Shown: positions 9,317 through 35,930 of the stretch, piece by piece
Position numbering within the stretch: position 1 is the stretch's first letter
Layout: each line of letters starts with the position of its first letter
DNA from: Bacilli bacterium
GTDB taxonomy: Bacteria; Bacillota_I; Bacilli_A; RF39; UBA660
Reading direction: 5' to 3'
Assembly (NCBI GenBank): GCA_017432665.1
Contig: JAFRIS010000014.1
Location: 4,383-68,382 of the forward strand
DNA: 64,000 nucleotides
Position numbers and translations under genes: made by a program
Notes under the pieces: model-generated
Told to the model about the DNA's origin: nothing
Databases searched by the model: none
Seen by the model: the letters and a program-made list of their open reading frames with translations, nothing else

Positions 9317-10861
9317 ATGATTATTCGTAAACCATATGCATTCCTTATCAAAAACTTTAGAAAAGTTCACGCAGTATTACTACTTATAAGTTTATATGTA
9401 TTGTTTAAACTATTAGATGTAAGTAGTTTTATTAGTGATTTTATGAGTTTTGGTATTTATGATTATTCTAATAATCCAATTGGCAAGCATGTTACTATAT
9501 TTTTACATGTTGCAATTTTTGTGTTGTTAGTTGGCAGCTTCTTTCTAGTATTATTATTAAAAAGAAAAGAAAAACCATGGAAAATATATTTAGTCCCAAT
9601 AATTGAATATGTTGCTTTATTCCTGGTGTTAGGAATGATTACTAGTTTCTTTAATCATTTTAATAATGGAATCGCAACTACTGATGTTCGTTTATCAAGA
9701 GATTTATTAGTTATACTTATTTTAGGTAATTTTGCTACTATAGGTATTTTTGGTATGCGTTTATTAGGCATGGATATTAATAAATTTAATTTCGCTTCTG
9801 ATGAAGAATTCTTAGAATTAGCTGAAGAAGATCGCGAAGAAGTAGAATTAAGAGTAAAAATTGATAAAAATATTTTTATTAGATTATATAATCGAACTGT
9901 TAGAAATCTAAATTATTTCTACTTAGAGCATAAAAGATTATGTAATTCTTTTTTTGGAATTATTGGTTTAGTACTATTAGCTGTAATTGCTAAAACTATT
10001 TTTGTCACTAATAAAAGTTATAATGAAGGTGATTTTTATTCAGCTAATGGTTATACCATTAAAATTAATAAGTCGTATTTTACAGATAAAGACTACAAAG
10101 GAGAAATAATTTCTAAAGATAGTAACTTTGTAGTTGTTGATTTAACTATTACTAACAATGCTGAGTCTAGAATAATTAAACTAGATAATTTTCACTTAAA
10201 AACAGGAGTTAGTGATTTTACTACTACTAGAAAGACTTATGAAAAGGAGTTTCAAGATTTAGGAACTACTTATAACGAAAAGAAAGAATTAAAAAGAGAG
10301 GAAACTGCTCAAATAATTATTGTTTTTAAAGTAGCTAAAGAATTGAATAAAGATAATTTTGCCCTTTTTTATCAAGAGGGTACAGGAACACTTAGAAAAA
10401 TTAAATTAAATATTACTGATATTAGTGAAATAAAAGATAAAGGAATTGTTAAAATTGGAGAGAATTTAACTCTTAAATTAAAAAGAAAAGAAACGATTTC
10501 TTTAGATAGTTATGCTTTTACTGATAAAGTTACTTATCCGATTAGAAAATGTAATACAGAAAAGTGTGTTATAGAAAAGGTTTCCTATAATGCAACCAAA
10601 GGAAATAAAGTCTTAAAAGTAGACTTTGCTTCAGATAATTTTGAAGGCAAAGACATGGTTGACTTTTGTGCTGATTATGGTAAAATAAATTATATAGATA
10701 ATAATAAGATGGAACATTCCGTAGAGTTTAAATATCCTTTCCAAAATCAAGCTATTGGAAAGACTCTTTATACTCTTGTCCCTGATGAGGTTGTGAAGTC
10801 TGAAACATTGGAATTTGTCTATGTAATTAGAAATGAAAAGTATACTTATAAGTTGAAATAA
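9317..10861 (+). CDS. Membrane protein with 4 N-terminal TM helices and a beta-rich extracytoplasmic C-terminal domain
   Basis: 514 aa. The C-terminal region is of the DUF4352-like type (unverified). It is the first gene of the long co-directional block. Confidence 0.45.
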   Translation: MIIRKPYAFLIKNFRKVHAVLLLISLYVLFKLLDVSSFISDFMSFGIYDYSNNPIGKHVTIFLHVAIFVLLVGSFFLVLLLKRKEKPWKIYLVPIIEYVALFLVLGMITSFFNHFNNGIATTDVRLSRDLLVILILGNFATIGIFGMRLLGMDINKFNFASDEEFLELAEEDREEVELRVKIDKNIFIRLYNRTVRNLNYFYLEHKRLCNSFFGIIGLVLLAVIAKTIFVTNKSYNEGDFYSANGYTIKINKSYFTDKDYKGEIISKDSNFVVVDLTITNNAESRIIKLDNFHLKTGVSDFTTTRKTYEKEFQDLGTTYNEKKELKREETAQIIIVFKVAKELNKDNFALFYQEGTGTLRKIKLNITDISEIKDKGIVKIGENLTLKLKRKETISLDSYAFTDKVTYPIRKCNTEKCVIEKVSYNATKGNKVLKVDFASDNFEGKDMVDFCADYGKINYIDNNKMEHSVEFKYPFQNQAIGKTLYTLVPDEVVKSETLEFVYVIRNEKYTYKLK

Positions 10862-10871
10862 GGAGATATTT

Positions 10872-12653
10872 ATGAGTGATGCACTAAAGGATAAAATGAA
10901 GATAGCTATTACTGCAGCTATCATTGGGTTGTTTATTTGGTTTTTAGTTGTCTCTCCAATGATTACTTTTCATCGTAATGAAAAGAAAGTAGAAGAAGCT
11001 GCTAAAAGATATTTTGATCTTTATAGTAATGAGCTTCCTACGGGTGAGAGAGTAAAGACTGTTAGCTTAATAACGCTATATGATAAAGCCTTTATGAAGG
11101 AAGATGTTTATATACCATATACTAAAAAAACTTGTTCGGTTAATGATAGCTGGGTAAAAGTTAGAAAAGTAAATGGAGAATATAAATATTATACTTACTT
11201 AAAATGTGGAGTGTTAAACTCAACTGTCGATCATAAAGGACCAGAAATAAAATTATATGGTGATGAAGAAATGACAGTTAATAGAGGAGAGAAATACAAA
11301 GAACCGGGTGTTAAGAGTGTGGTTGACAACTCTGATGGTAAAATGAGTCTTGAATCTGTAACGGTCAAGGGTAAAGTTGATACATCTGAGATAGGAACTT
11401 ATGATGTTCAATATGTTGCGTTTGATTCATTGAGTAATAAAACTGTCGTTACTAGAACAGTTACAGTTGTTCAAAAATTAGGACCGACAGTTAAGAAAGC
11501 TACAGGAAATGTTGATTATTATGTTGGGGATGCTGACAACAATTATATTTATTTCTCTAATATGTTATTTAGAATAATAGGATCAAATGGTAATAATGTT
11601 AAAATCATTGCTGATAAAGATATTGCTAATGTTAATTATGAAGGTATTGATGAATGGTTTAAATATTATGAAAAGCATTTAACAGATGAGGCTAAGAAAT
11701 TAATTGTTAAGTCTAAGTATTGTGATATGGGTCTATCAAAGGGTACTACTGATACTACTCAATGTAATCATTATGGGACAGAAAAGAACTTTGGATTAAT
11801 TTCAATTGATGAAATTAACAAAGCTACACCAAAGGGTGAAAACAGTTTCTTGATGCCTGAGACGGTATCGTGGATAGCTAATATTAAAAATGCAGAAGAG
11901 GCTTATACAGTTATAGTATTTTCTGAGAGTGCTACAGAATATTCTAAGAAACATAATTATGGTGTACGACCAGTTATAACTATTGATGGAGAAACATTAA
12001 TAAAATCTGGTGATGGTACTGAAGAAAAACCATACATTTTAACTGATTATAAGAAAGTAAAGAAGAATACAGAATTAAACAAGAGATATCCTGGAGAATA
12101 TATTACTTATGGAGGAGTTACTTGGAGAATAATTGAAACTAATAGTGATGGAACTACTAAAGTAATATGTGATGAAGAATTGGCTGATGGTGATAATTAT
12201 CTTACTTTTGCTGATCCTGAAGGACTAAAAAATCACATCTATAATCCGGAAAAGAAAGATAATGTTGGATATTTTGTTAATAATCATTCTAGTGAATATA
12301 TAGATACAGGTTATTTTGTAACACATGAAATAAAGGTTCCTATTTATGAAAAAGAACCAATGTATAAAAAAGAAGTAGAAACTAAGAAATATACTGTTAA
12401 ACTATCAGCGCCAAATATGTATGAAATGTTTAGTGCTAGTCCAGCTAAGACATTCGTAGAATCTTATGGATTAATTAATTCTTCAAAAGATGCGATTGAA
12501 AATCCAGGAGTAGATAATGACGGTGTTGTTCTATATAGTTATGAATCAACAAATTATCAATATGGTGTACGACCAGTTGCTTATTTTGATAAGAGAGTTG
12601 TAATAAATGGTGGTAAAGGTACTGAAAATAGTCCTTTCAAAGTAGAAAAGTAG
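10872..12653 (+). CDS. N-anchored surface protein with an Ig-like DUF5011 domain and repeated GVRPV...GxGT..PY modules
   Basis: N-terminal TM. DUF5011-like segment (GPEIKLYGDEEMTVNRGEKYKEPGVK...GTYDVQYVAFDSLSNKTVVTRTVTVV). The YGVRPV motif occurs twice. It is a paralog of 34649-35902. Confidence 0.6.
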   Translation: MSDALKDKMKIAITAAIIGLFIWFLVVSPMITFHRNEKKVEEAAKRYFDLYSNELPTGERVKTVSLITLYDKAFMKEDVYIPYTKKTCSVNDSWVKVRKVNGEYKYYTYLKCGVLNSTVDHKGPEIKLYGDEEMTVNRGEKYKEPGVKSVVDNSDGKMSLESVTVKGKVDTSEIGTYDVQYVAFDSLSNKTVVTRTVTVVQKLGPTVKKATGNVDYYVGDADNNYIYFSNMLFRIIGSNGNNVKIIADKDIANVNYEGIDEWFKYYEKHLTDEAKKLIVKSKYCDMGLSKGTTDTTQCNHYGTEKNFGLISIDEINKATPKGENSFLMPETVSWIANIKNAEEAYTVIVFSESATEYSKKHNYGVRPVITIDGETLIKSGDGTEEKPYILTDYKKVKKNTELNKRYPGEYITYGGVTWRIIETNSDGTTKVICDEELADGDNYLTFADPEGLKNHIYNPEKKDNVGYFVNNHSSEYIDTGYFVTHEIKVPIYEKEPMYKKEVETKKYTVKLSAPNMYEMFSASPAKTFVESYGLINSSKDAIENPGVDNDGVVLYSYESTNYQYGVRPVAYFDKRVVINGGKGTENSPFKVEK

Positions 12654-12661: not shown

Positions 12662-13474
12662 TTGGATAAGAAAAGAAAAAGAAAAGGGGAAAAAGTTGAT
12701 ATCTTATCAATAATAATGCTCCTGTTACTGATTGCGATCGGAACATTGGCATTTGAATTAAAAAATAGTACTGACTATCAAACTCAATCTAGAGAGTTAG
12801 AAATAAAAGAAGCTCAAAATAATGATAATAATGATAAAAAGACGGTTGGATGGTTAAGAGTTCAAGGAACAAATATCGATCTTCCTATAATATATGCGCC
12901 ATTTTACGATTTCGCATATGAAACGGGTAATTTTGCTTGGACTGAGGCAGATTTTAAAGAATTAAACAATATTGTTTATATTACTGGTCACAATATTAAA
13001 AATATGTCAGCTAGACCACTGATTGCTGATGAAAGTCATGATCGATTTGAGCAGCTAATGAGTTATGTATATGTTGAATTTGCTAAAGAAAATCAATTTA
13101 TTCAATATACATTTAATGGAGAAGATTATTTATATAGAATCTATTCAATTGCTTTTATTGATGAATCTGATATAGATATGTATAACAGAGGAGAATATAC
13201 TAAAGATGATATGAACCGATTTATCAAAACTACTAATGAGAAGAGTATCTATAAATATGATGTAGATGTTAATAATGAAGATAAATTTATTTCATTAAAT
13301 ACATGTACGAATATGTTTGGAGAAAGTGAAAATATTCGTATAACTATAAACGCTAGACTTGTTCGAGACGATGAAAAAGCAAAACTTGCTCAAGTAAAAA
13401 AATCTGAGCAATATAGAATCATAGATAATATTATGGAAGGTGGAGATTCTGATGAAGAAACAGATGAAGTTTAA
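12662..13474 (+). CDS. srtB: Class B sortase
   Basis: Basic N-terminus followed by a TM. VGWL, ITGHN (His), ISLNTCT (Cys) and RITINARLV (Arg) align with the S. aureus SrtB catalytic residues. TTG start after an AGGTGA RBS. Confidence 0.75.
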   Translation: MDKKRKRKGEKVDILSIIMLLLLIAIGTLAFELKNSTDYQTQSRELEIKEAQNNDNNDKKTVGWLRVQGTNIDLPIIYAPFYDFAYETGNFAWTEADFKELNNIVYITGHNIKNMSARPLIADESHDRFEQLMSYVYVEFAKENQFIQYTFNGEDYLYRIYSIAFIDESDIDMYNRGEYTKDDMNRFIKTTNEKSIYKYDVDVNNEDKFISLNTCTNMFGESENIRITINARLVRDDEKAKLAQVKKSEQYRIIDNIMEGGDSDEETDEV

Positions 13475-16469
13475 AAAAGGAATTATAGGGGTTGCAGTAA
13501 TCATTATTGCTGCGGTAGTATTCTTTTCAGCAAAGTCTATGAACAAAGTTGTAGCAGCTAATAATTCTTGCAATAATGCTACAGAATTACAACAATACTA
13601 TAACTTAGCATATGATTGGTCGAATGATGACAAAAAGTTAATTCTCACGACTAAACACGGTAGTTTTAGAATGATTGCAATAAGCCATCCTGAATACTTT
13701 ACAAATACTTTTACTAAAGATTCAGATGGGTACTATAAGATAGATAATGCAAAAGGAACAATTGATAGAGATCATAAACTTACATTGACGATTAAGGATG
13801 TTTCAAGTTTAAATATTCAAAATGAAGATTATGGATTTACTATGAGACTAGCATTATCAGAAAATGATAGTGTAAAAGGATGCCTTTCAATGGCAGAGTT
13901 CAACAGAACTCATTCAGGAGCAACTTTTGAGTCTGGATTAATTGAAATTGAACTTCCAAAGAGTAGTATTACTGCTGGTGGAGCACCTGGTGTTGATAAT
14001 AGTAATTATAATAGAGCTTGTTTGGCTCTAAGAGAAGGAAAAGATCCAACAGGAAAGATTAATGTTTCTGGTGTTAATTATTTAAAATTATATAACGCTA
14101 GTTATCGTGAAGATTATAAAGCATTAGTTCCAAGTTGTTGGCAAGCAAAAGTTTCTAACCCATTTGAAGAAAATGAAATGATTGAAATAATTCGTATCGC
14201 TTTATCATCAACGTATGAACAACATCATTTATCAGTAGGTGAAGGTGATACCGACGGTGGAACTGCTTGGTTAATCAATTTCGATAATGTAGTTAAAGCA
14301 GCTAAAGAAGAAGATAAAACTGCTAAGACTAATAAAGAAAAACATGTATTCTATACTGATGGAAAAAGAAATTTCTTTACTGCTAAAAAAGGTACAAAAG
14401 TATTTGAATTTGGTAATAAAGATAAAAATGTTGGTATAGGAATGAAATGTAGAATTAAGGCTAATTCAGAGGAGAGAGCTACTTTAGATTATTCTAATTT
14501 ATTAGAACATAGTGGAGTAGATTCTAGTGGTAATCCAATTTATAACATTAATGCTAATACTCAACATTATTATGCATGGAATGAATTGATTGAAACAGTT
14601 ACTTATAAATGGAATTACACTAAAGGAAATAGTTTATCAGATAAAAAGAAAACAGAAGTAGTAAATGCTTGTACTAGAATTTGTGAAGAAGCTGTAGAAG
14701 TTAAATATGGACCTCCAGTTGCTTCTAAAGCAGGATTATGTTTTGAATATCAAGTACAAGTAACAAGTAGAGTTAAATGTAAAGCAATAATTAATGCTAA
14801 ACCTCCAAAAGAACCTAAGGTATGTGAACCAAATCCTAAATGTAATAATGTGCCTGGTTATATTCACCAAGCTGGTGGTAATGAAGAATTTGCAGCATGT
14901 ATCCATGAATGTGATGGTGGAAAATACACTAAAGCATGTAGTGATGCTTGTTATGCAGAAGTATATGAAGGTGCTGATAATAAAACAGCAGCTCGTATAG
15001 ATACAGCTAGAACTGAGCAATTAGGATTAAGCAGTGCCTGGTTTAAAGGATATTACAAGTGGAGTGGCGGATCTATTCAATGGGTAAGTCAAGGAAAGAA
15101 AAATACTTATGCTAGATATTATAAACTGTTTGAATATGGAAAAACTTCAAGAGATCATGCTGGTTATGCTGGTAAACAATATAGACCGGTTAATGGATTT
15201 AAACGTAGGATTAAGCCAACTCGTTGTAAAGATAGTTGTTATTTTAGAGGATGTAGTCAAACTCAATATCTAAATAAAGATGAGGCGCATGAAGATTACA
15301 TCAGTAACTTAAAGAAATATAATGCAGCTATTGCTAAATGTAAGGCTAGTGCTTCATGTACAACAAAAACAGCTACATTTACAATTAAAACTGATTATAA
15401 GAGCGGTAATGGACAAACTGTAACAGTTGATTATCCTTATACAGGAAATACTCCTACAACTCCAGAAACATTAACAAGTAGTGATAATGCTAATAATTGT
15501 CATAATCCTGGTAATGTTACAAAAGATAAAGATATTATCTTAAAATATGCTGGATGTTATGCTAAATGTGGTCAAGGACTTCAATATCAAAGTAGATGGA
15601 GTTTCCCAGGATCATGGATTAACAAAAAGACTGGAGAACTTTCATTTGTACCAAAGAATGGAACAGGATGGACTGAAAAAGATGATAAGTTCTGTATTCC
15701 ATTAGATGCTCAAGACGTTAATTCTAAGTGGTGGAAATACTATTATGCATTATATAATGCAAATCATGTTACTTCATATAATACTACTCAAGCAGCTATT
15801 GCAAACTGTATAAGTCTTCTTCCAGAAACAGTTGCTAGTGTTACAGAAAGCGACATTGATAAATGGAATATTAAAGGTTCTACTAGAAACTTTGGATATT
15901 ATGGATGGAACTTTGATATATCTTGCTTCTATGCATTGAATACTAAGTTGAATAAAACGACAACAACTACTACAGAATATACAAATAGTTGTGTTCCAAA
16001 CAATCCACAATCTGCATACAAAATTAGAACGGTTGATTTGAAGAACATGTTCCCAGATAATAGCAAAGCTTCTGGAGCACGTGAACCAGGATTCAACTGG
16101 TCAAGCAATGCCAATATCTTAGCAAGCAATGGTAAGGTAGAGCCTAATCAACAAGTTATGCCTTCAGTATATGCTCAAAAAGTTCAAAGTGAAGGTTATA
16201 ATATTTACAACAACAATAATATTGATTATGAATTTGAATTAACAAAAGAAATGATCAAAAATATAAAAGGAAATGATAGAAATTACACTAATTTCACAGG
16301 TAACATGGTTACTCGAAATGGTATGGTTTCATATCAAAGTGATGTTATTAGAAAAGGAGCGTTTGCTTCATCTAGTAATAAAGTAATGAATACTGCGGCT
16401 ATTGGATGTAACAATGTAGAAAACTACAGAAGTGCAGTATGTAGCAATATACAAGAGGAGGGGAAATAA
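13452..16469 (+). CDS. Large Cys-rich secreted protein (about 1005 aa) with a signal peptide
   Basis: MKKQMKFKKGIIGVAVIIIAAVVFFSA signal peptide and more than 40 Cys. There is no C-terminal LPXTG/NPQTN sorting signal and no C-terminal TM. It lies between the sortase and the Tad genes. Confidence 0.6.
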   Translation: MKKQMKFKKGIIGVAVIIIAAVVFFSAKSMNKVVAANNSCNNATELQQYYNLAYDWSNDDKKLILTTKHGSFRMIAISHPEYFTNTFTKDSDGYYKIDNAKGTIDRDHKLTLTIKDVSSLNIQNEDYGFTMRLALSENDSVKGCLSMAEFNRTHSGATFESGLIEIELPKSSITAGGAPGVDNSNYNRACLALREGKDPTGKINVSGVNYLKLYNASYREDYKALVPSCWQAKVSNPFEENEMIEIIRIALSSTYEQHHLSVGEGDTDGGTAWLINFDNVVKAAKEEDKTAKTNKEKHVFYTDGKRNFFTAKKGTKVFEFGNKDKNVGIGMKCRIKANSEERATLDYSNLLEHSGVDSSGNPIYNINANTQHYYAWNELIETVTYKWNYTKGNSLSDKKKTEVVNACTRICEEAVEVKYGPPVASKAGLCFEYQVQVTSRVKCKAIINAKPPKEPKVCEPNPKCNNVPGYIHQAGGNEEFAACIHECDGGKYTKACSDACYAEVYEGADNKTAARIDTARTEQLGLSSAWFKGYYKWSGGSIQWVSQGKKNTYARYYKLFEYGKTSRDHAGYAGKQYRPVNGFKRRIKPTRCKDSCYFRGCSQTQYLNKDEAHEDYISNLKKYNAAIAKCKASASCTTKTATFTIKTDYKSGNGQTVTVDYPYTGNTPTTPETLTSSDNANNCHNPGNVTKDKDIILKYAGCYAKCGQGLQYQSRWSFPGSWINKKTGELSFVPKNGTGWTEKDDKFCIPLDAQDVNSKWWKYYYALYNANHVTSYNTTQAAIANCISLLPETVASVTESDIDKWNIKGSTRNFGYYGWNFDISCFYALNTKLNKTTTTTTEYTNSCVPNNPQSAYKIRTVDLKNMFPDNSKASGAREPGFNWSSNANILASNGKVEPNQQVMPSVYAQKVQSEGYNIYNNNNIDYEFELTKEMIKNIKGNDRNYTNFTGNMVTRNGMVSYQSDVIRKGAFASSSNKVMNTAAIGCNNVENYRSAVCSNIQEEGK

Positions 16470-16472: not shown

Positions 16473-16961
16473 ATGAACAAAGGAATTTTAACAGTAGGAA
16501 TTATCCTTCTTAGTGTAATTGCATTAGTTTTAATAAATGTATTAACAAATTATTCTACAGGTAGTGAGTTAGATTACTATTTAGTAAAAGAAACAACAGA
16601 CGCTGCTATGGAAGATGCAATTGATATTTCTTATCTAAGAACATGCGGTGTCTATCGATTAGATAAAGAAAAGTTCGTAGAGAGCTTTCTTTATCGATTC
16701 GTCGATAGTGTAGATACAACTAGAGGTTATACTATTGGTTTTTATGATATTAACGAAGTACCACCAAAGGTTAGTGTAAAAGTTGATTCATTAACGGCGT
16801 TAACTTTTAAAGCTAATACAGGAAATGGAGAAGAAGATATCGAAGGAAACATTAGTACTAGTTATGATGCTATACTTGAATCTAAGTATTTAACAGATTT
16901 ACCTACAGAAGAAGGAATGCAGAGTAAAACAAGTGATGCTTGTAAGGCTGTAAAAGGATAA
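16473..16961 (+). CDS. Small N-anchored protein with a prepilin-like N-terminus (MNKG-ILTVGIILL); possible pseudopilin
   Basis: 162 aa with a short basic leader ending in Gly followed by a hydrophobic stretch. It sits in the Tad locus. Confidence 0.4.
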   Translation: MNKGILTVGIILLSVIALVLINVLTNYSTGSELDYYLVKETTDAAMEDAIDISYLRTCGVYRLDKEKFVESFLYRFVDSVDTTRGYTIGFYDINEVPPKVSVKVDSLTALTFKANTGNGEEDIEGNISTSYDAILESKYLTDLPTEEGMQSKTSDACKAVKG

Positions 16962-16982: not shown

Positions 16983-17801
16983 ATGGGAAATTTAAGTACA
17001 AGCTTTAAAAAATTTATGCAAAACAAAAATACAGTTACTGTAGTAGGAGTTATTGCAGCAATCTTCGTATTATATATTGCATATACAATGAGAATAAACA
17101 AAGCGATAAATCCAATTGTTGTTCCTTATGCATCTGAACAGATACCTGCAGGAACTCAAATAACTGAATCAATGGTTGATACTAGAGAAGTACCACCTGC
17201 AATGTTAAAGGGTGATGTAATTCAAAATAAGAGTGAAATCATTGATAAATATTCAGCTGCTGATGTAGTTATTCCAGAAGGAAGTTTATTCTACAAAAGA
17301 GCAGTAGTTGAAAAAGAACAATTACCTGCTAATATCATATTAGACTATCCTAAAGGATATGTACTATATAATTTACCAGTTGATATTTCTGATACTTATG
17401 GTAACTCAGTATATCCAGGTAACTATATTGATATTTGGTTAAAAGCTGTTTATAAAATAGCTGATGAAGAAAAACCAACTGCTGAAGAAAAAGCAAATGC
17501 TAATAAGATTATGTATGGTAAATTAATATCTAACATTCAAGTATTAGCAGTTAAAGATGGTTCTGGTAGACCAGTATTCCAAAATATAGATGAAGAAAGA
17601 GTACCAGCAATGATTGTATTTGCTGTACCAGAAGATATTTATACATTGCTTTCTAAAGCAAGTTACATGAGAACTTATGATACTGATATCGTATTAGTTC
17701 CAACGAATGAAAGTGTTAAAGATGAACCAGGAGAACTAGAAATTAGTAGTGAACAACTAAAAGAATGGATCAATGAAAACACTTATTGGACAGAACATTA
17801 A
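16983..17801 (+). CDS. cpaB: Flp pilus assembly protein CpaB/RcpC (SAF domain)
   Basis: N-terminal TM followed by SAF/CpaB-like domains. It lies immediately upstream of the TadA ATPase. Confidence 0.7.
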   Translation: MGNLSTSFKKFMQNKNTVTVVGVIAAIFVLYIAYTMRINKAINPIVVPYASEQIPAGTQITESMVDTREVPPAMLKGDVIQNKSEIIDKYSAADVVIPEGSLFYKRAVVEKEQLPANIILDYPKGYVLYNLPVDISDTYGNSVYPGNYIDIWLKAVYKIADEEKPTAEEKANANKIMYGKLISNIQVLAVKDGSGRPVFQNIDEERVPAMIVFAVPEDIYTLLSKASYMRTYDTDIVLVPTNESVKDEPGELEISSEQLKEWINENTYWTEH

Positions 17802-17840
17802 AATAAAGAAAAAAAGAAAGAATAAAGGGATGTGAGCTCA

Positions 17841-19235
17841 ATGAATGAAAACATATTTGACAAATTAGACTTCGGACCATTTCGTTCGTTATTAGATAAC
17901 GATGATATTACCGATATTTCATATGATAACAATGGACAGATATGGATTCGTTCATTGACTCAAGGATCTTTGCGTGTTGAAGTTGAAGGGGCAACTCCTG
18001 AATTCGTTGAGAAGTTGGCCTTTCAATGTTCCAACGTAATGGGAACAACATTTAATAATGCTAAGCCATTCCTAGATGCTGAATCTGCTGAGTTACGTAT
18101 GAATTTCGTACATCAGTCAATTGCAACTAATGGAATAGCACTAGTTATTCGTAAAACTCCGGCTAAGATTAGATTGGAGAAAGAAAAACTAATTCAAGAA
18201 GACTATTTTACTCCAGCTATACATGACTTTTTAATAAAATGTGTTGAAGGTCACTGTAATATAATGGTTGCTGGAGAAACTGGTTCTGGTAAAACAGAAT
18301 TTGTTAAATATTTAGCTAGTCACACAAAGACTAATGAAAAAATAATAACTATTGAAGATACATTAGAGTTGCACTTAGATAAAATCTTCCCACAAAGAGA
18401 TATAGTTGCAATGAAAACTAACAATGTAGCTTCATACTCAGACGTGTTAGTTACTTGTATGCGTCAGAATCCGAAGTGGATTCTATTATCAGAAGTTCGT
18501 TCTGCAGAAGCTGTTTCTGCTGTACGTAACTCTATTTCATCAGGACATAACATCTTATCAACTATCCATGCCGATAAGGCATCTGCTATACCATATCGTT
18601 TATATTCATTAATGGAAACAGACTTGGATGTTCACCAATTTTTAACGACAATTTATCGTTATATTCAATTAGGTGTCCATATCAAAGCTTTCTATAGTAA
18701 AGAATATGGAAAATTCCATCGTGAATTAGATGAGGTTTCAGAATTCTATGTTGATGATGAAAATGTACCTAGATCAAGAATTATTTATCAAAAAATCTTT
18801 GGTAAACCAATAATGTGTAAGCCTAGTGCTCATTTGGTTGAATATCTTGAAAATCAAAATATTGAAGTTCAAAGTATAATCAAAGATTTACCTGATGAAT
18901 TACCACTTACTGAAGTAATTCAAGAAGGGGAACAAGAATTAGAAAATAACGGTTCTGTTACACAAGAATCGAATAATACAAAAGAGGTTAAGCAACCCGA
19001 GGCTGCTCCGACAGTAGCTCAACAATCACAACCACCACAAGCACAACCTGCACCTGAACCACAAATGGTACAAGGGCAAGCTGCTAGTGAACCAGTTGTT
19101 GCTAATGGAGATGTTCAAATGGCAGCTCCAGTAGTAAACTCAGTGGTTGATAATAAGGCTGCTCAACCACAAGTTGCAGGAGCTCAAGCACCGGTTGCTG
19201 CTCCACAACCTAATATAACTAAATTAGAAGGATAA
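17841..19235 (+). CDS. tadA: Tad/Flp pilus ATPase TadA/CpaF (VirB11/GspE superfamily), with a C-terminal Pro/Gln/Ala-rich tail
   Basis: Walker A GETGSGKT, Asp box and His box region (ILSTIHA). A C-terminal tail of about 90 aa is PQA-rich. Confidence 0.85.
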   Translation: MNENIFDKLDFGPFRSLLDNDDITDISYDNNGQIWIRSLTQGSLRVEVEGATPEFVEKLAFQCSNVMGTTFNNAKPFLDAESAELRMNFVHQSIATNGIALVIRKTPAKIRLEKEKLIQEDYFTPAIHDFLIKCVEGHCNIMVAGETGSGKTEFVKYLASHTKTNEKIITIEDTLELHLDKIFPQRDIVAMKTNNVASYSDVLVTCMRQNPKWILLSEVRSAEAVSAVRNSISSGHNILSTIHADKASAIPYRLYSLMETDLDVHQFLTTIYRYIQLGVHIKAFYSKEYGKFHRELDEVSEFYVDDENVPRSRIIYQKIFGKPIMCKPSAHLVEYLENQNIEVQSIIKDLPDELPLTEVIQEGEQELENNGSVTQESNNTKEVKQPEAAPTVAQQSQPPQAQPAPEPQMVQGQAASEPVVANGDVQMAAPVVNSVVDNKAAQPQVAGAQAPVAAPQPNITKLEG

Positions 19236-26837: not shown

Positions 26838-27375
26838 TACTAGTAGTAGATTTACTGAAGACTGGTTACCAGTAAGAGCTATTCAAAATAATATGATTAT
26901 TACTAAAAATAATTATAAAGTTGGTGGAGTAAAGATTTCTCCTCGTAATATATTTATTTTGGACCCTGATACTCAAAATAATATTTTGATAGGACTTAGA
27001 AATTTTTATAACACAATAGATTATGAATTCTGGTTAATAGTAGCAGATAGACCAGTTGATATATCTGTTTATATGTCACAAATGCAATTGCTACTTAATG
27101 AAACTAATTCACCAGCAATTCGTAAATTAATTATGCAAGATATTGAAAAGGGTGAAACATTCATCCGTAACAATATAGTTGATACAGAATACTACTTTAT
27201 GTTTAGGAGTAAAAATGTTGATGAATTGCAAAAGAGGATTCGTCAAATGATTAATGGACTTGCGACTTGTGGTCTTAATGCTTCTATGATTAGTAATTCT
27301 GATTTAAGATTAGTTCTAGAGAACTTCTTGAATGGTGGTAATACTACCGAGTTTGGAACGGTGATGCCTCTATGA
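26785..27375 (+). CDS. VirB4-family N-terminal domain encoded as a separate ORF (split or frameshifted VirB4)
   Basis: 196 aa resembling the N-terminal domain of Tn916 Orf16/TcpF-type VirB4. It ends in an ATGA overlap with the ATPase ORF. The true start is uncertain (GTG at 26812 is possible). Confidence 0.55.
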   Translation: MNGKVGVIKVSAKKQSGNTSSRFTEDWLPVRAIQNNMIITKNNYKVGGVKISPRNIFILDPDTQNNILIGLRNFYNTIDYEFWLIVADRPVDISVYMSQMQLLLNETNSPAIRKLIMQDIEKGETFIRNNIVDTEYYFMFRSKNVDELQKRIRQMINGLATCGLNASMISNSDLRLVLENFLNGGNTTEFGTVMPL

Positions 27376-29171
27376 GTACAAGTTTAAGAGGACAATTAGC
27401 TCCTAAAGGATTACATTTTAATCATAGTGACTTTGTTATTAGTGATAAATATGCAACTATTTTAACAGTTGTTTCTTATCCTAAATACATTATGCCAGGA
27501 TATTTATCAACACTTACTAATATGTCAGGTATTAAAGTAGTTGTTAAACATATCCCAGTTCCTTGGGGAGATATGGCAAAGATGTTAAATAAGCAAGTTG
27601 CTGAATTAAAAGAAAGATATCAAAATGAAAAAGACCAAACTGTTCGTGAAAGAATTAGACAAGATGCTGAAAGTTTGGAATACTTTACTTCTATGTTAGC
27701 AGGATCACAAGCTAGAATATTTGATTTTCAAATGCATATTATGATTACTGCTGATACTAAAGAAGAATTAGAATTAAAGAAATTGAATGTTAAGAATTAC
27801 CTTGATTCAATGGAATTAAGAGCTATTTCACTTCGTTTTGAACAAGAGAAAGTATTAAAATCAATTCTTCCAATATTCCCAGATAGGGATACTCAAGAAT
27901 TAGAATCAAGAATTGGTACTCCGATTCCTTCAGTTACTATCGCAGCAATGTATCCATTTATCTTCGATAGTATTAAAGATCCAGGATTATCTACATTACT
28001 TGGAGTAGATTTCTCTGGAGGAGTAATTCTATTCAATCAATTCTTATATAAAGTTCGTAAGGAAACTAATAGAAATAATGCTAATATGATTATTCTAGGT
28101 ACTTCTGGTTCTGGTAAATCTACTGCAGCTAAGTTGTTACTTAGAACTCATATTCGTAATGGATGTCAAATAGTTATAATCGATCCAGAAGATGAGTTTA
28201 GAGAATTAACTCGTACTTATGGAGGAGATAGTGTTGATATTGGAAAAGGTGGAGAATTTGGACTTATTAATCCCCTTGAAATAGTTATTGATGCTGATGA
28301 AGAAGAAATTAAACAAGGTTTAGGTTATACAGTTTTAACTAGGACTTTGCAATTCTTAAAAGCATTTATGAAGTATTATGATCCTTCTATAGAAGAAGCT
28401 GTACTTACTATGTTTTCTGAAATAGTACAAGATACTTATAGGAGATTTGGTATAGACTTTACAACTGACTTTTCTAGGTATACATCAGAGGATTATCCGA
28501 CATTTAGTGATGTATACGCAACTATTAAAGGAAGACTTATGTCTATGACTGAACAAACTCAAGAAAGAGAAATTATGGAAAAACTTGAGTTAAAAGTAAG
28601 ACCTATTGTTAATGAATTGAAATTTTACTTTGATGGTCATACTACTATTAGTAAAGGTAGTGACTTCATGGTATTTAATATTAAAGAGTTAATGAATAGT
28701 GATTCTACTATTAAGAATGCTTTGTTCTTCAGTGTTTTAAAATATGCTTGGGGTCTATGCTTAGACTTCAATGTTGATACAGTCTTAATGGTTGATGAGG
28801 CTCATGTTTTGTTAGGTGATAATAATGCACTTGGTGCTGACTTCTTAGCCCAAGTTCAAAGACGTGCTCGTAAATATAATACTGGTACAGTTATTATTAC
28901 ACAGCAACCTAGTGATTTCTCAGATCCAGCTGTTATTACACAAGGTAAAGCAATCTTTGATAACTCTTCTTATTACTTAGTAATGGGTCTTAAAAAGCAA
29001 GCTGTCGAAGATTTGTCATTACTTATTGATTTAAATGAAAGTGAGAAAGAAAGCATTAAACATTATTCTCAAGGTGAAGCATTATTCGTATGTGGTCACC
29101 GTCGTATGAGAATAAATGTAGCTGTTACGCAAGAAGAATTGGATTCCTTTGGAAGTGGAGGAGGATTCTAG
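27372..29171 (+). CDS. VirB4-family T4SS ATPase (TcpF/PrgJ/Orf16-like), C-terminal ATPase part
   Basis: Walker A GTSGSGKST and Walker B LMVDEAHVLL. 599 aa. Confidence 0.85.
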   Translation: MSTSLRGQLAPKGLHFNHSDFVISDKYATILTVVSYPKYIMPGYLSTLTNMSGIKVVVKHIPVPWGDMAKMLNKQVAELKERYQNEKDQTVRERIRQDAESLEYFTSMLAGSQARIFDFQMHIMITADTKEELELKKLNVKNYLDSMELRAISLRFEQEKVLKSILPIFPDRDTQELESRIGTPIPSVTIAAMYPFIFDSIKDPGLSTLLGVDFSGGVILFNQFLYKVRKETNRNNANMIILGTSGSGKSTAAKLLLRTHIRNGCQIVIIDPEDEFRELTRTYGGDSVDIGKGGEFGLINPLEIVIDADEEEIKQGLGYTVLTRTLQFLKAFMKYYDPSIEEAVLTMFSEIVQDTYRRFGIDFTTDFSRYTSEDYPTFSDVYATIKGRLMSMTEQTQEREIMEKLELKVRPIVNELKFYFDGHTTISKGSDFMVFNIKELMNSDSTIKNALFFSVLKYAWGLCLDFNVDTVLMVDEAHVLLGDNNALGADFLAQVQRRARKYNTGTVIITQQPSDFSDPAVITQGKAIFDNSSYYLVMGLKKQAVEDLSLLIDLNESEKESIKHYSQGEALFVCGHRRMRINVAVTQEELDSFGSGGGF

Positions 29172-31457: not shown

Positions 31458-32231
31458 ATGTGGAAAAGATATGTTCCGTTAATAATTGTTATGATTATTG
31501 TAGGAGTGACAATGTTTCTCCTATATGGATTAGACTCATTACGCCGAGAAAAGTATGAAACAGCCATAGTAGTTGGTGATAATACATCTTGGATATATAA
31601 GAAAAAAAGATGGATTAAAGTTAGTAGTGCTAATGCTTTTGAAGATTTAAATTGGAAAAATTTTGAAGTATATGAAAATAACGAAAGAGTTGGATCATAT
31701 AACTTATGGCATGATGATAAATGGTATGTTTTTGATGACAAAAGAAATGCCATTAATATTGAAGGTGAAATGTTAGCATATCGTTCTAATTATGATATTA
31801 CTATGGATGAATTTAGTAAGGAAGAAATTACTGATAATACTTACGTTAATACTGTTTTAACCGATCATAATTTATCGAATGATAATAAGTTTACTACTTC
31901 TTATAAGACTAGTGTGGATATTGATCACGACGGTAGTCTTGAAGAGTTTTATGTTATAAGTAATGTGTTTCCTCTAAATTTTCAACCAGAGAAGATTTTC
32001 TCATTTGTATTTATGGTAAAAGATGAAACAATCTATTATTTATATGAAGATGTTGCAGATTATAGAGTTTATGCAGGATGTTCTCCAGATATAATTACTT
32101 TTATTGATGCAAATGCTGATAATAATGATGAATTAATAGTTAGTTGTTTTCAATATAGTAATTTAGGGAGAGTAGATATGTTATATAACTTTAATGGAGA
32201 AAACTTTAAAATATTAATTTCTAATCAATAA
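31458..32231 (+). CDS. N-anchored protein in the VirB8/TcpC position (unverified)
   Basis: 257 aa with a single N-terminal TM. The call rests on position only. Confidence 0.3.
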   Translation: MWKRYVPLIIVMIIVGVTMFLLYGLDSLRREKYETAIVVGDNTSWIYKKKRWIKVSSANAFEDLNWKNFEVYENNERVGSYNLWHDDKWYVFDDKRNAINIEGEMLAYRSNYDITMDEFSKEEITDNTYVNTVLTDHNLSNDNKFTTSYKTSVDIDHDGSLEEFYVISNVFPLNFQPEKIFSFVFMVKDETIYYLYEDVADYRVYAGCSPDIITFIDANADNNDELIVSCFQYSNLGRVDMLYNFNGENFKILISNQ

Positions 32232-32287
32232 TTAATGACAGTTTTCAAAAGTTAAGTTATAATATATACGAGAAAGAAGGGACAAAT

Positions 32288-34633
32288 ATGAAGTTTAGGT
32301 TTAGAGCTGATCCAGATGATTTACTTATCTTTGGTGTATTTGCTGGTTTTTTGCTTTTTATAGTAGCTTTAGTAGTATCAAATTTACATACTATGTCAGC
32401 TGATGGACACTTATCTGGACTAAATCCATTTCCAGCTTTTGCTCCAGATATGATTTTATCAACACTTGCTTTATATTTATTAGTATTGCTTGGCTTGTTT
32501 GCTAGTGTTAGTTCTATGTTTTTTGAAAGAGAAGAAGGACTTGGTATAAGAGCTAGTAAAAAAGATAAGGGTTATTCTAGATGGGCTAAGGCAAAAGAGA
32601 TTCAAGAAGAATTAGAACGTGTTGAAATTAACATGAAAAGTAGTAGAGCTGCTGGGATACCATTATTAATTAATGAACAAGAAATGTGGGTTGATAACGG
32701 AGAATACCATTCTTTAGTAATTGGTGCTACTGGTTCTGGTAAAACTCAAACAGTAGTATTACCTATGGTACATAGTTTAGCTAAGGCAAAAGAGTCAATG
32801 ATTATTACCGATCCTAAAGGTGAAATTTATGAAAAGACTTCTAATATGCTTAGAGCTCGTGGATATCAAATATTATTACTAAATTTCCGTGATCCTCAAA
32901 ATGGTAATGCTTGGAATCCAATGACTTTACCATATCAAATGTATAAATCTGGTAATCAAGATAAAGCAATAGAGTTATTAGATGACTTGGCTTTAAACAT
33001 CTTATATGATGAATCAAATAAAAATGCTGATCCATTCTGGGAAAAAACATCTGCGGATTACTTTTCTGGAGTAGCACTTGGATTATTTGAAGATGCTAAA
33101 GAAGAAGAAATTAATATTAATAGTATTTCTCTTGCTACTACAGTAGGTGAAGAGAAATTTGGTGGATCTACATATATTAAAGAATATTTTGCTGGTAAAG
33201 ATCCTAATAGTGCCGCAAGTATTAATGCTTCAAGTACTATTATGGCTCCTAGTGAAACAAAGGGAAGTATTTTATCAGTATTTAAACAAAAAGTTAAATT
33301 GTTTGCTTCTCGTGAAAACTTATCTGAAATGTTAAGCTATAGTGATATTGATTTAGAAAGTATTGGAGAAAAGCCAACTGCAGTATTTATTGTTATTCAA
33401 GATGAAAAGAAAACATATCATTCATTAGTTACAATATTATTAAAGCAAATATATGAAACTTTAATTAGAGTTGCTCAAAGACATGGTGGTCAGTTACCAG
33501 TAAGGACAAACTTCTTATTGGATGAGTTTGCTAATATGCCGCCATTAAAAGATGTTACAACTATGATTACAGCTGCTCGTTCTCGTAAAATTAGATTTAC
33601 AATGATTATTCAAAACTTTGCTCAATTAGATGATGTTTATGGTAAAGAAGAGGCAGAGACTATTAAAGGTAACTGTGGTAATATTGTTTATTTGATTACT
33701 ACTGAATTAAAAGCCTTAGAAGAAATATCTAAAATGTGTGGAGAAGAAAAGTCTAAAAAAGATGATAAAACGGCTTCAACACCATTAGTTACAGTTTCAG
33801 ACTTACAGAGAATGAAACAGTTTGAAGTAATTATTTTACGTATGAGAAAGCAACCTTTTAAGACTAAGTTCACACCATACTTTAAGCTTAATTGGGGAGC
33901 AAAATATCCTCCTGCAAAATATCCATCTCGTAAGAAAGAAGAAGTTCATACTTTCGATATAAAAGAATTTGTTAAAACACAAAAGAAAAAGAAGTTATTA
34001 GAGATGATGAATGCAGCAGATGATAGAGATAGGGAAATATCTATGTCTGGAGGAATGATAAGAGAGAATCCATTTGCTGATCAATTACCTCCTGCTTTAA
34101 GAGCAGCTAGGGAAGAGAATAGGATAGAAAGACCAGCTAGAGAAGAAATTCCTAGTTTCTTACGTAGACCTGTTACTGAAGAAAAAGAAGATGAAGATCG
34201 AGATATTAAAGTTCCAACTAGAACTACTAAGATTCCTGATTTTGAAACATTTAAAAGAGAAATGGAATCAACAGATATTGGCTTCAATCCATTTGAAAAT
34301 ATGGTTAGTAAGCCAGCACCTATGACTAAATTAGATGATGAAGATGATGATGACTCTGATGGTGGATTAGACTTTGATGTCGATGAACTAGTTAAGAAAA
34401 TAGATGCTAAGATTGCTGAATTAGAAGCAGAAGAACAAAGAGCTAAAGAGGAAGAAGAAAAAGCTAAGAAAGAAGAAGTTAAAGAACAACAAGAAACTGC
34501 ACAAGAAGTTGAAATTAATAGTATTAATGAAATTACTCAAGATAAACCAGAAGTTACTTCAAAACCAGTTAATTTGAATTTAGATGATGATACTGAAGAT
34601 GATGACTTCTTTGATGATTTCTTTGATAATTAG
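32288..34633 (+). CDS. Type IV coupling protein (VirD4/TraG/TcpA family) with a long acidic C-terminal tail
   Basis: Two N-terminal TM helices, Walker A GATGSGKT and a C-terminal tail of about 250 residues rich in E/D/K. Confidence 0.8.
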   Translation: MKFRFRADPDDLLIFGVFAGFLLFIVALVVSNLHTMSADGHLSGLNPFPAFAPDMILSTLALYLLVLLGLFASVSSMFFEREEGLGIRASKKDKGYSRWAKAKEIQEELERVEINMKSSRAAGIPLLINEQEMWVDNGEYHSLVIGATGSGKTQTVVLPMVHSLAKAKESMIITDPKGEIYEKTSNMLRARGYQILLLNFRDPQNGNAWNPMTLPYQMYKSGNQDKAIELLDDLALNILYDESNKNADPFWEKTSADYFSGVALGLFEDAKEEEININSISLATTVGEEKFGGSTYIKEYFAGKDPNSAASINASSTIMAPSETKGSILSVFKQKVKLFASRENLSEMLSYSDIDLESIGEKPTAVFIVIQDEKKTYHSLVTILLKQIYETLIRVAQRHGGQLPVRTNFLLDEFANMPPLKDVTTMITAARSRKIRFTMIIQNFAQLDDVYGKEEAETIKGNCGNIVYLITTELKALEEISKMCGEEKSKKDDKTASTPLVTVSDLQRMKQFEVIILRMRKQPFKTKFTPYFKLNWGAKYPPAKYPSRKKEEVHTFDIKEFVKTQKKKKLLEMMNAADDRDREISMSGGMIRENPFADQLPPALRAAREENRIERPAREEIPSFLRRPVTEEKEDEDRDIKVPTRTTKIPDFETFKREMESTDIGFNPFENMVSKPAPMTKLDDEDDDDSDGGLDFDVDELVKKIDAKIAELEAEEQRAKEEEEKAKKEEVKEQQETAQEVEINSINEITQDKPEVTSKPVNLNLDDDTEDDDFFDDFFDN

Positions 34634-34648: not shown

Positions 34649-35902
34649 ATGAGTTTAAAAGAGAATTTAGTAACTCATCCAGATGAAGAAGAAGACACTA
34701 GCGAAGATATGGAAATAGAAGTAGACCAGTTATCTGATGATACCAAGTCTAGTTCATCTGATAGTGCTGCTAAAAGTAAAATGATGAAGTTTATGGGAAT
34801 AATTTTAATAATAACAATTTTATTATTAGTAGTATTATTTATTCTTTCTTATGCTTCACCTAAAACTTATACTTATGAAGAAATAGAAGAAGTTCTTAAG
34901 AAAGCAGCAGTTAGTTATTTTAAAGATCATCCAGAAAGTTTACCTCAAAATGAAGGTAGTATTATTGAGATTGATTCAAGTAATTTAGTAGCTGAAGGAA
35001 AAATGAAAGAATTATCTGAATATGTTAAAGATGATGTTACTTGTACTGGTACAGTTCAAGTAGAATTAGCTGGTAGTAAATATCTATATACACCATATTT
35101 AAATTGTGGAGAAACTTATGCTACTGTTGAACTTTATAAAAAGATAATTGATAATGGGGTAGTAAGTTCTGGATATGGTTTATATGCTAATAGAGGTAGT
35201 TATGTTTATAAGGGTGAGGAAGTAAATAACTATGTTAAATTAGATAATAATTTATGGAGAATAGTTAAGATTACTCCAAATAATAACATTGTACTTATTT
35301 CTAATGAATTAGTTGGATATGGTAATACATGGGATGATCGTTATAACGAAAATAAGACATATGAAGCAGGCATTAACCAATATAGTCTTAGCCGTATCCA
35401 TGATTATTTAGATAAGATTTATGGTCATCCTAGTAAAGCTGAAGAAGATAGAGAAAATATCCTTTCTGCAGAAGATAAGACTAAGTTAGTTTCTTTTGAT
35501 TTATGCGTAGGTAAGAGAAGTCAAAAGAGTGAAGGAAAAGATAATGCTATTGAATGTTCTCAAAAAATGCGTAATCAAAAAATTGGTTTATTAACAGTAG
35601 CTGATTATATGAATGCTAGTTTGGATCCTAACTGTAAAACTACTGTTTCTAAGACTTGTGAAAATTATAATTACTTAGCTCAAGTAAATTCTTGGTGGTT
35701 AATTACTGCTGATAAAGATGATAATTCACAAGTATATGAAATTAGTCAAAGTGGTAAAATAGTTAGTCAGCCAGCATCTACTTATACAGGAGTTAGACCT
35801 GTAGTATATCTAAATAGTAGAGTACTATATAAAGGTGGAAAAGGTACTTTGAAAAAACCATATAATTTATCAGAAATATCAGAAGATGAAAAGAAAAAAT
35901 AG
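34649..35902 (+). CDS. N-anchored surface protein, paralog of 10872-12653 (GVRPV...GGKGT..PY module)
   Basis: Acidic N-terminus, then a TM, then TGVRPVVYLNSRVLYKGGKGTLKKPYNL near the C-terminus. It is the last gene of the block. Confidence 0.55.
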   Translation: MSLKENLVTHPDEEEDTSEDMEIEVDQLSDDTKSSSSDSAAKSKMMKFMGIILIITILLLVVLFILSYASPKTYTYEEIEEVLKKAAVSYFKDHPESLPQNEGSIIEIDSSNLVAEGKMKELSEYVKDDVTCTGTVQVELAGSKYLYTPYLNCGETYATVELYKKIIDNGVVSSGYGLYANRGSYVYKGEEVNNYVKLDNNLWRIVKITPNNNIVLISNELVGYGNTWDDRYNENKTYEAGINQYSLSRIHDYLDKIYGHPSKAEEDRENILSAEDKTKLVSFDLCVGKRSQKSEGKDNAIECSQKMRNQKIGLLTVADYMNASLDPNCKTTVSKTCENYNYLAQVNSWWLITADKDDNSQVYEISQSGKIVSQPASTYTGVRPVVYLNSRVLYKGGKGTLKKPYNLSEISEDEKKK

Positions 35903-35930
35903 GAATCTATGTAAAATAGATTCTTTTTTT
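35903..35930 (+). terminator. Strong rho-independent terminator closing the block
   Basis: GAATCTAT-gtaaa-ATAGATTC followed by a T7 run. Confidence 0.75.

Follow-up and report, generated by a model that had tools for sequence, protein, structure and literature searches.

A chromosomal locus of RF39 bacteria that joins a Tad-like filament module to a relaxase-less type IV secretion system

We analysed a stretch of 64,000 nucleotides (hereafter the window) from a Bacilli bacterium of the order RF39, which corresponds to positions 4,383 to 68,382 of contig JAFRIS010000014.1 (assembly GCA_017432665.1). Within the window, a block at 9317-35902 carries a Tad-like filament module and the translocon of a type IV secretion system (T4SS) in one locus (Table 1). 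Every substantial open reading frame (ORF) in the block lies on the + strand and the intergenic gaps range from -53 to +95 nt, as expected from an earlier annotation made from the sequence alone (the original prediction), which had described a contiguous, co-directional block with minimal or overlapping gaps. We counted 23 ORFs, or 24 if both pieces of VirB4 are counted singly, and not the approximately 27 genes reported there. The block opens with surface and sortase-like proteins and continues with the Tad-like module, which is followed by the VirB2-like pair, VirB6, the split VirB4, the SpoIID hydrolase, VirD4 and the DUF6273 protein. Families were assigned by Pfam and NCBIfam scans of the window ORFs. 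These scans recovered the ATPase, VirB6, VirB4, VirD4 and SpoIID proteins named in the original prediction, assigned its terminal surface protein to DUF6273, and added a DUF5411 protein which it had overlooked. With 25-34% G+C the window is AT-rich, and its GC skew is positive throughout. Genes for DUF6020, an HD dGTPase and greA flank the block upstream, and dedA, rmuC, trpS and a rhomboid gene downstream, so that the housekeeping nature of the flanks (greA; dedA, rmuC and trpS) was correctly recognised; the remaining window genes are likewise housekeeping (HtpG, IleS, SepF, DivIVA, FtsW/RodA and others).

Table 1. Features of the block and of the upstream satellite locus in the window.
Feature	Coordinates	Strand	Remarks
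Two pilin-NlpC/P60 fusions flanking a 252-aa transmembrane (TM) protein	1288..3770	+	PF18895 above Pfam cut-off
514-aa membrane protein, first block gene	9317..10861	+	5 predicted TM, beta-rich extracellular part
593-aa surface protein	10872..12653	+	N-terminal TM, PF16403 Ig-like (E 2.9e-17), DUF6273-like C-terminal repeats
Sortase-like protein	12662..13474	+	Pfam score borderline, 26.7 bits vs cut-off 26.6
Secreted Cys-rich protein, ~1005-1009 aa, 29 Cys	13440..16469	+	No Pfam/NCBIfam match
DUF5411 protein	16473..16961	+	Pfam E 4e-43
CpaB/RcpC-like SAF protein	16983..17801	+	N-terminal TM; SAF E 3e-5, RcpC E 9e-5, below cut-off
Secretion ATPase, FlaI/CpaF/VirB11 superfamily	17832..19235	+	T2SSE E 1.5e-27; likely start 17841
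TadB-like platform protein	19250..20152	+	GspF/PilC cytoplasmic fold, 4 TM
TadC-like platform protein	20152..20955	+	Paralogue of TadB-like (hhalign probability 94%, E 1.2e-7)
55-aa pilin-like protein	21045..21212	+	Single helix, conserved MKAATGELNLTVITLIAI N-terminus; position matches pLS20 gene 41
Two minor-pilin-like paralogues, 151 + 173 aa	21235..22234	+	N-terminal MxxAxGG, hydrophobic helix, 6 Cys each
TadZ/CpaE-like protein, 359 aa	22266..23345	+	Receiver-like N-domain, ParA/MinD fold, degenerate Walker A xHAGATT
Sigma-70-type promoter TTGACA-17-TATAAT, perfect	23351..23379	+	In 54-nt gap before first VirB2-like gene
VirB2-like pilin a, 101 aa	23400..23705	+	Two hydrophobic helices flanking DLGKAVIASDEKEVK loop
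VirB2-like pilin b, 150 aa from given start	23801..24253	+	Signal peptide, variable N-region
VirB6/TrbL-like polytopic channel protein	24268..26496	+	TrbL_4, E 8e-9
107-aa protein, VirB3/PrgI position	26514..26837	+	Two TM; putative assignment from topology and position
VirB4 as two genes, 196-aa N-domain + 599-aa ATPase	26785..29171	+	4-nt overlap
Cell-wall hydrolase, 751 aa	29194..31449	+	TM, SpoIID/LytB domain (E 8e-11), C-terminal Cys/His region
257-aa bitopic protein, VirB8 position	31458..32231	+	Topology and position
Promoter-like ATGACA-17-TATAAT	32235..32263	+	Precedes virD4
VirD4-type coupling protein	32288..34633	+	T4SS-DNA_transf PF02534, 1.6e-58; 2 N-terminal TM, acidic C-terminal tail
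DUF6273 surface protein, 417 aa	34649..35902	+	Pfam; partial paralogue of 10872-12653
Terminator-like hairpin then T7	35901..35930	+	-11.6 kcal/mol, z -4.8

A VirB4 scan of contigs, with one genome per species, gave 582 confirmed stretches, of which the best 80 (80-97% amino acid identity) were analysed as related loci. All 80 come from gut metagenome-assembled genomes (MAGs), which bear the labels Bacilli, Tenericutes, Mycoplasma sp. CAG:877, Ca. Faecimonas or Ca. Onthousia; the samples were of human, ruminant, rabbit, mouse and chicken origin, and one of the genomes is a closed chromosome of 1.52 Mb. CAG-877 (Ca. Faecimonas) has been placed in the order RF39 (PMC8035907). Proteins identical to those of the window occur with the same neighbours on three metagenome contigs, and gut metagenomes contain thousands of close relatives of each of three block proteins, namely the ATPase, the TadB-like protein and the 359-aa protein, the named relatives being "MAG: Bacilli bacterium". 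Wherever the contigs reach, in essentially all of the best 80 loci, the gene order from CpaB through DUF6273 and on to dedA-rmuC-trpS is kept. In the gene-neighbourhood comparison proposed with the original prediction, the Tad-like half adjoins the T4SS half in 66 of the 67 related loci that extend far enough upstream.

The core genes of the block are about as conserved as the housekeeping flank: median identities are 85.5% for the C-terminal piece of VirB4 (VirB4C), 77% for the ATPase, 75% and 73% for the TadB-like and TadC-like proteins and 71.5% for VirD4, against 82% for rmuC and 77% for trpS, while the exposed parts of the block fall to 40-48%. The ratio of nonsynonymous to synonymous substitutions (dN/dS) ranged from 0.03 to 0.19 in the ATPases and platform proteins and from 0.09 to 0.65 in the rest of the block, where the hydrolase, the VirB8-position protein and the DUF6273 protein had the highest values; it was below 1 in every block gene, and all genes were intact. 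Pairwise distances of VirB4 co-vary with those of rmuC (Mantel r 0.51, a value reached in 0 of 999 permutations). The shared chromosomal context, the flank-level conservation and the dN/dS values below 1 thus suggest a vertically inherited, functional chromosomal system and not an integrative and conjugative element (ICE).

The T4SS module had been described as devoid of relaxase, integrase and replication genes, and both family scans and tblastn agree with that description. Among the scanned ORFs of at least 90 aa across the 64 kb, none matched a relaxase, integrase, replication or partition family, and tblastn with the MobP2 relaxases of the conjugative plasmids pLS20 (Bacillus subtilis) and p32 (Enterococcus faecium) and with the replication-relaxation protein of a Priestia plasmid gave no match, either in the window or across more than 80 related loci. 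Two block proteins were considered as hidden relaxases and rejected: the 514-aa protein is a polytopic membrane protein, and the 359-aa protein, the sole cytoplasmic protein of the block without a prior identity, has a TadZ fold. A conventional or decaying ICE would be consistent with the G+C content of the block (0.30-0.34), which slightly exceeds that of the flanks (0.25-0.27), and the closest characterised relatives of the locus are all plasmid conjugation systems. Nevertheless, the block keeps the same chromosomal neighbours in dozens of species, its intact genes match the housekeeping flanks in conservation, and we found neither integrase nor relaxase nor a flanking tRNA/att signature, the sole tRNA gene being 20 kb away. 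We therefore regard an ICE as essentially excluded, in line with the original prediction, which had held a conventional ICE unlikely. The insertion of an ICE beside a resident Tad locus was also rejected, on the conserved context and on plasmids with the same synteny (see below).

As to the individual components of the Tad-like module, the SAF/RcpC similarity of the protein previously called CpaB is present but weak; a CpaB-like gene is also found at the same place in two further species (L087 and L088). The proposed TadA is confirmed as a secretion ATPase. Its NCBIfam scores are ambiguous (VirB11, 112 bits; TadA-type, 104; FlaI, 97), and among solved structures it is nearer to FlaI (72 bits) and CpaF (69) than to VirB11 (55). 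The assignment of TadB and TadC also holds, as the two proteins are paralogous, single-domain members of the GspF family; they are too diverged to be detected by Pfam T2SSF. A profile search of representatives with the TadB-like protein returned mostly fragments and a single distant full-length match with weak T2SSF similarity. Profiles of the TadB-like, TadC-like, TadZ-like and VirB8-position proteins retrieved nothing useful from PDB sequences, and fold comparison was used for the labels where these searches came up empty. The TadZ-like label stood up well, with a receiver-like domain and an atypical ParA/MinD domain in the protein. The labels given to the pilins fared less well. The 55-aa protein agrees with a Flp pilin in size, topology and position; nevertheless, its conserved MKAATGELNLTV N-terminus is without EY, the Flp G/XXXXEY motif is absent, and no Pfam or NCBIfam family was matched. 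Similarly, the pair described as TadE-like pseudopilins (41% identical to each other, E 2e-36) has the appropriate size, topology and position but no Pfam TadE match; the plasmid counterparts match DUF4320 weakly. No scanned window ORF matched Peptidase_A24, the family of the TadV/CpaA prepilin peptidase.

The two VirB2-like proteins at the start of the T4SS half are paralogues sharing a conserved charged loop between two hydrophobic helices. We scanned 18 aligned sequences (17 VirB2-like a and b proteins of the window and related loci, and the TrbC/VirB2 protein of p32) with PF18895 (T4SS_pilin), and 11 of the 18 matched (best E 2e-6), supporting the VirB2/TrbC assignment of the original prediction. 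L067, L071-L073, L081 and L082 carry three such genes instead of two (~5.1-7.1 kb); the number of pilin paralogues thus varies, as reported for Patescibacteria. The proposed VirB6-like and VirD4 proteins were both confirmed by family matches (Table 1). For VirB4, whose two pieces had already been noticed, we can add that the split is natural. The pieces (26785 and 27372) align to positions 90-277 and 295-891 of one NCBIfam model, and the split is kept in all related genomes as well as in pLS20 and p32. A frameshifted pseudogene was rejected because of this conservation throughout the relatives and also in plasmids. Only part of the composition proposed for the hydrolase was recovered: SpoIID is there, whereas CHAP was not detected by Pfam and the C-terminal region is CHAP-like by eye only. 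The VirB3-like and VirB8-position labels agree with size, topology and position; neither these proteins nor their orthologues gave a significant family or PDB match. The VirB3-position orthologues gave single weak TcpE/PrgI matches only, and a Pfam scan that covered 43 orthologous proteins (VirB3-position, VirB8-position and pilin-like) and the C-terminal region of the window hydrolase yielded only isolated weak matches.

The T4SS half begins with its own promoter. The site before the first VirB2-like gene scores 11-12 out of 12 in 56 of 67 related loci, and a promoter-like site before virD4 scores 10-11 out of 12 in 45 of 54. No intergenic terminator-like site was found within the block by a consensus scan, the single + strand match (13491-13516) lying inside the 5' end of the gene for the Cys-rich protein. 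The terminal hairpin, which had been described as a strong terminator, is real, but "strong" was overstated; it holds just 2 G-C pairs, and for this reason the consensus scan missed it. Since the internal promoters are conserved, a single transcription unit or operon does not follow from the co-directional layout, and the block probably consists of nested transcription units in which the pilin and T4SS genes are predicted to be strongly expressed.

The same promoter raises the possibility that the locus consists of two independent neighbours, a Tad-type adhesive pilus and a separate T4SS, and in one related locus the T4SS half indeed lacks a Tad-like half upstream. We consider such independence improbable, as the halves are adjacent in all the other informative RF39 loci, no terminator separates them, the distances of the ATPase and VirD4 co-vary (Spearman 0.63), and the same pairing exists within conjugation operons of Bacillus and Enterococcus plasmids.

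The 514-aa protein that opens the block matched no Pfam or NCBIfam family, and its orthologue is likewise the first gene of the locus in L087 and L088. The protein at 10872, formerly described as a DUF5011 surface protein, is a surface protein, but the family it matches is PF16403 (Ig-like). It shares a DUF6273-like domain with the protein at the far end of the block (24% identity, E 6e-8), and the two bracketing surface proteins are therefore partial paralogues, in keeping with the original prediction. The class B sortase proposed for the next gene is only a borderline match to the sortase family; no block protein ends with an LPXTG-type sorting signal, and the sortase-like protein has no evident substrate in the block. 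The large Cys-rich protein, correctly described as secreted and of about 1005 aa, is a putative adhesin or tip protein, with orthologues of 904-991 aa in L087/L088. These two species retain the entire upstream half (the 514-aa, Ig-like, sortase-like, Cys-rich and DUF5411 genes). A DUF5411 gene also adjoins the SAF and ATPase genes on the Priestia plasmid.

The closest characterised counterparts of the block are conjugation operons of Gram-positive plasmids. The best plasmid matches of the ATPase were "VirB11" of pLS20-type B. subtilis plasmids and of an E. faecium plasmid, while VirD4 best matched CD1115-type coupling proteins from Bacillus thuringiensis, Clostridioides and Clostridium plasmids, with 28-32% identity to the CD1115-family VirD4 of Bacillus and Clostridioides plasmids. 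Identities between block and plasmid proteins are 37% for the ATPase (36.7% with pLS20 gene 37), 28% for VirD4 and 24% for VirB4. The likeness extends to gene order. In pLS20-type operons and in that of p32 (a pMG1/pHT-beta-like plasmid), as in the block, the ATPase precedes two ~265-aa membrane proteins, which in the plasmids show weak full-length T2SSF similarity (E 0.19 and 0.41), and a ~120-aa protein with an N-terminal TM helix and ~47-aa mini-proteins follow. Further shared components are VirB6 (the pLS20_p028 family), a VirB3-position protein (DUF5592 in the plasmids), a separate gene for a ~190-205-aa N-domain directly before VirB4, a hydrolase, VirD4 and large adhesins upstream; p32 also has a VirB2-like gene, annotated as TrbC/VirB2. 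There are differences as well: (i) genes for a MobP2 relaxase, a primase, partition and replication are present in the plasmids, whereas the chromosomal block has none of them; (ii) VirD4 precedes VirB6 in the plasmids but stands at the end in RF39; (iii) the hydrolase is of the lytic transglycosylase/C40 type in the plasmids and of the SpoIID type in RF39; and (iv) pLS20 has no annotated TadZ-like, CpaB-like or DUF5411 gene, whereas the block and the Priestia plasmid have all three. On the Priestia plasmid, a relaxase and a coupling protein are accompanied by Ig-like, DUF5411, SAF, ParA-like, CpaF/VirB11, T2SS-F and DUF4320 genes; the stretch examined has no annotated VirB4.

This comparison changes several premises of the original prediction. 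It had assumed that T4SSs of Firmicutes lack a VirB11 ATPase, but the pLS20-family and pMG1-like operons carry the ATPase together with the TadB/C-like module; the VirB11 homologue (gene 37) was singled out as unusual for Gram-positives in the study of the pLS20 family, in which genes 38-47 are listed as unknown (PMC8557374). It had also assumed that these systems have no extended pilus, for which a Tad filament would stand in, but the RF39 locus has VirB2-like pilins of its own behind a conserved strong promoter, and p32 encodes TrbC/VirB2. Nor is the layout a novel hybrid, as the same union of Tad-like and T4SS genes already exists in pLS20-type plasmids and p32. The presence of the same ATPase and TadB/C-like module in plasmids suggests that the hybrid was inherited from a known plasmid type of mating-pair formation (MPF) apparatus and was not assembled in RF39. 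The union predates the RF39 locus, and what is particular to RF39 is its chromosomal fixation without a DNA-processing gene.

Taking together the composition, the conservation and selection, the absence of a relaxase from the window and the kinship with plasmid systems, we favour, with a probability of roughly 60%, the reading that the block is a domesticated mating apparatus of the pLS20/pMG1 type, fixed in the RF39 chromosome for contact-dependent transfer or exchange. Judging from its gene content, the block probably serves cell-cell contact and transfer, and not the spread of a mobile element. On this reading, the locus descends from the MPF module of pLS20/pMG1-type conjugative plasmids of Gram-positives, has lost the relaxase and all mobility genes in RF39 and is retained under purifying selection. 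Filament assembly, cargo and direction of transfer are inferred. Contact with another cell would be made by the Ig-like/DUF6273 surface proteins and the Cys-rich protein of 1000 aa together with a short filament, which the Tad-like motor would assemble, or which would consist of VirB2-like pilins, or both. The FlaI/CpaF-like ATPase, the TadB/C-like platform and the TadZ-like organiser may assemble the 55-aa and minor-pilin-like proteins, or may energise the translocon in the manner of VirB11. Opening of the wall would fall to the SpoIID-type hydrolase; the membrane channel would consist of VirB6, the split VirB4 and the proteins in the VirB3 and VirB8 positions, and VirD4 would select cytoplasmic cargo. 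Such a machine may exchange macromolecules with neighbouring cells by contact and thereby support a dependent lifestyle.

Several points weigh against this reading. The two halves might work independently, because the T4SS half has its own promoter; in L034 it is preceded by unrelated genes, among them a UDP-galactopyranose-mutase-like one, in place of the Tad-like half (L034 1-6100). The genome may encode a relaxase outside the window, or one of a type not yet recognised. The Tad-like unit could serve only as a VirB11-like energiser and build no filament, given that neither a prepilin peptidase nor a Flp motif was found. Finally, the dependence of RF39 on partner cells is a hypothesis and not an observation.

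Contact-dependent exchange nevertheless ranks first among the readings considered here, followed by relaxase-independent exchange of chromosomal DNA, two independent systems, DNA uptake and, last, an ICE. In the second of these, RF39 cells would exchange chromosomal DNA among themselves without a dedicated oriT and relaxase, or with unrecognised ones, comparable to transfer through the ICE-encoded TraE/TraG pore of mycoplasmas. VirD4 is retained and conserved, and among curated families VirB4 scores highest with that of Mycoplasma ICEs (VirB4_plasma, 3.6e-105, 352 bits), ahead of CD1110 (4e-52, 177 bits); systems moving chromosomal fragments with VirB4 and VirD4 only are listed in a 2025 review (PMC12857230). 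A contig from another sample (L004) compared with window 22229-44633 is 100% identical from ~28.3 kb on but only 40-90% identical upstream of this breakpoint, which falls within virB4. Either the pilin/VirB6 part was replaced homologously between strains, which would fit DNA exchange, or the contig is a chimera that arose at the highly conserved virB4 during metagenome assembly. We regard DNA exchange as rather unlikely, since no relaxase, DDE transposase or DNA-processing gene was found in the 64 kb and housekeeping-level retention across the whole order is not readily explained by it.

The block could also be a DNA-uptake (competence) machine, comparable to Helicobacter ComB, the archaeal Ced/Ted systems or Flp-pilus transformation in Micrococcus. 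Such a function would agree with a pilus-type module and no relaxase in the locus, and an organism with a reduced genome could gain from importing nucleotides or DNA. Archaea are known to possess conjugation-like import systems (PMC9905601), and transformation of M. luteus is supported by Flp pili (PMC4322843). The ComB uptake system, however, is not known to include VirD4, whereas the VirD4 of the RF39 locus is well conserved and ends in an acidic tail; this retention favours export or exchange over ComB-type uptake. A section of the 2025 review headed 'Systems lacking VirD4 homologs' mentions the uptake of exogenous DNA in its legend, and the essentiality of the Saccharibacteria T4SS was found not to depend on comEC (PMC12857230). 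As there is also no ComEC/ComEA-type gene in the block, we consider DNA uptake quite improbable.

For domesticated, contact-dependent exchange, the nearest concept in the literature, judged by shared features, is the relaxase-less chromosomal T4SS of Patescibacteria. The Saccharibacteria species Southlakia epibionticum has such a system, with VirB2-like pilins, and cannot grow as an epibiont without it (PMC12102498, PMC12857230). Both systems are chromosomal and lineage-wide in monoderm hosts with reduced genomes, lack a relaxase and have an MPF-FATA-like set of VirB4, VirB6 and VirD4 (with putative VirB3 and VirB8 counterparts in RF39) and several PF18895 VirB2-like paralogues. Patescibacteria nevertheless belong to another phylum, and it is for them that essentiality and an epibiotic lifestyle are shown. 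Moreover, the Tad-like module is joined to the T4SS locus in RF39, whereas the two Patescibacteria papers describe no secretion-ATPase/TadB-C/TadZ module in the T4SS locus and place type IV pilus loci separately.

Two further comparisons concern the filament. With Tad/Flp (type IVc) pili the block shares an ATPase near FlaI/CpaF, a paired single-domain platform of GspF fold, TadZ/CpaE, a CpaB-like SAF protein and, by size and topology, a ~55-aa pilin-like protein and two minor-pilin-like paralogues, but the Flp motif, Pfam Flp/TadE families and prepilin peptidase of such pili were not found in the window. In the PAPI-1 island and the thin pilus of IncI R64, a type-IV-filament machine likewise accompanies T4SS ATPases and provides contact in liquid, according to the 2025 review (PMC12857230); these are mobile elements of diderms with relaxases and a type IVb pilus, unlike the Tad-like unit of RF39.

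Approximately 5.5 kb upstream of the block, we noticed a satellite locus with two tandem fusions of 283 and 282 aa (81% identical), each combining an N-terminal VirB2-like PF18895 domain with an NlpC/P60 peptidoglycan endopeptidase. The pilin domain of the fusions is 33% identical to the first VirB2-like protein of the block, and the 252-aa TM protein between them has no family match. A metagenome scan for the fusion found only two short contigs (L091, L092), and both carry the same tandem. It is tempting to speculate that a pilin-borne wall hydrolase with an immunity-like partner would fit a machine that breaches the walls of neighbouring cells.

Few uncultured lineages with small genomes are as widespread in animal and human guts as RF39. 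Its genomes are highly reduced, with many auxotrophies (PMC12306168), and our full-text literature searches found no paper connecting RF39 with T4SSs, pili or conjugation; the order-wide system of this abundant lineage is thus apparently undescribed. As a tentative idea that we hold to be doubtful, RF39 may depend on a chromosomally fixed Tad-filament/T4SS machine, common to the order, with which it would attach to other cells and exchange macromolecules with them or extract these from them, some of its VirB2-like pilins being fused to the wall-cutting NlpC/P60 enzyme. If so, RF39 would be the second monoderm lineage, independently of Patescibacteria, to have turned a conjugation machine into a lifestyle organelle, and the first in which such an organelle has a type-IV-filament motor as an integral part. 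The 2025 review describes VirB2-type pilins as absent from Gram-positive T4SSs except in Patescibacteria, whose T4SS is treated there as unique among monoderms (PMC12857230); the RF39 locus departs from that picture, with VirB2-like pilins in a Bacilli lineage alongside a Tad-like motor, no relaxase and housekeeping-like conservation. A possible dependence on partners would offer a handle on the resistance of RF39 to cultivation. The locus also places genes 38-47 of pLS20-type plasmids, which had lacked an explanation, in a functional context; these plasmids spread in Bacillus and Enterococcus. It constitutes, moreover, a natural experiment on the domestication of conjugation machines.

Two other features of the window lie apart from the block. 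A gene for a 659-aa ATPase of the HerA/DUF87 type (44918-46897) is located among the housekeeping genes downstream of htpG. The region 59138-63562 has a higher G+C content (0.33-0.38) and contains small ORFs, a 998-aa protein without a family match and a DUF4176 protein; in Firmicutes, the DUF4176 family is linked to loci for type VII secretion and polymorphic toxins.

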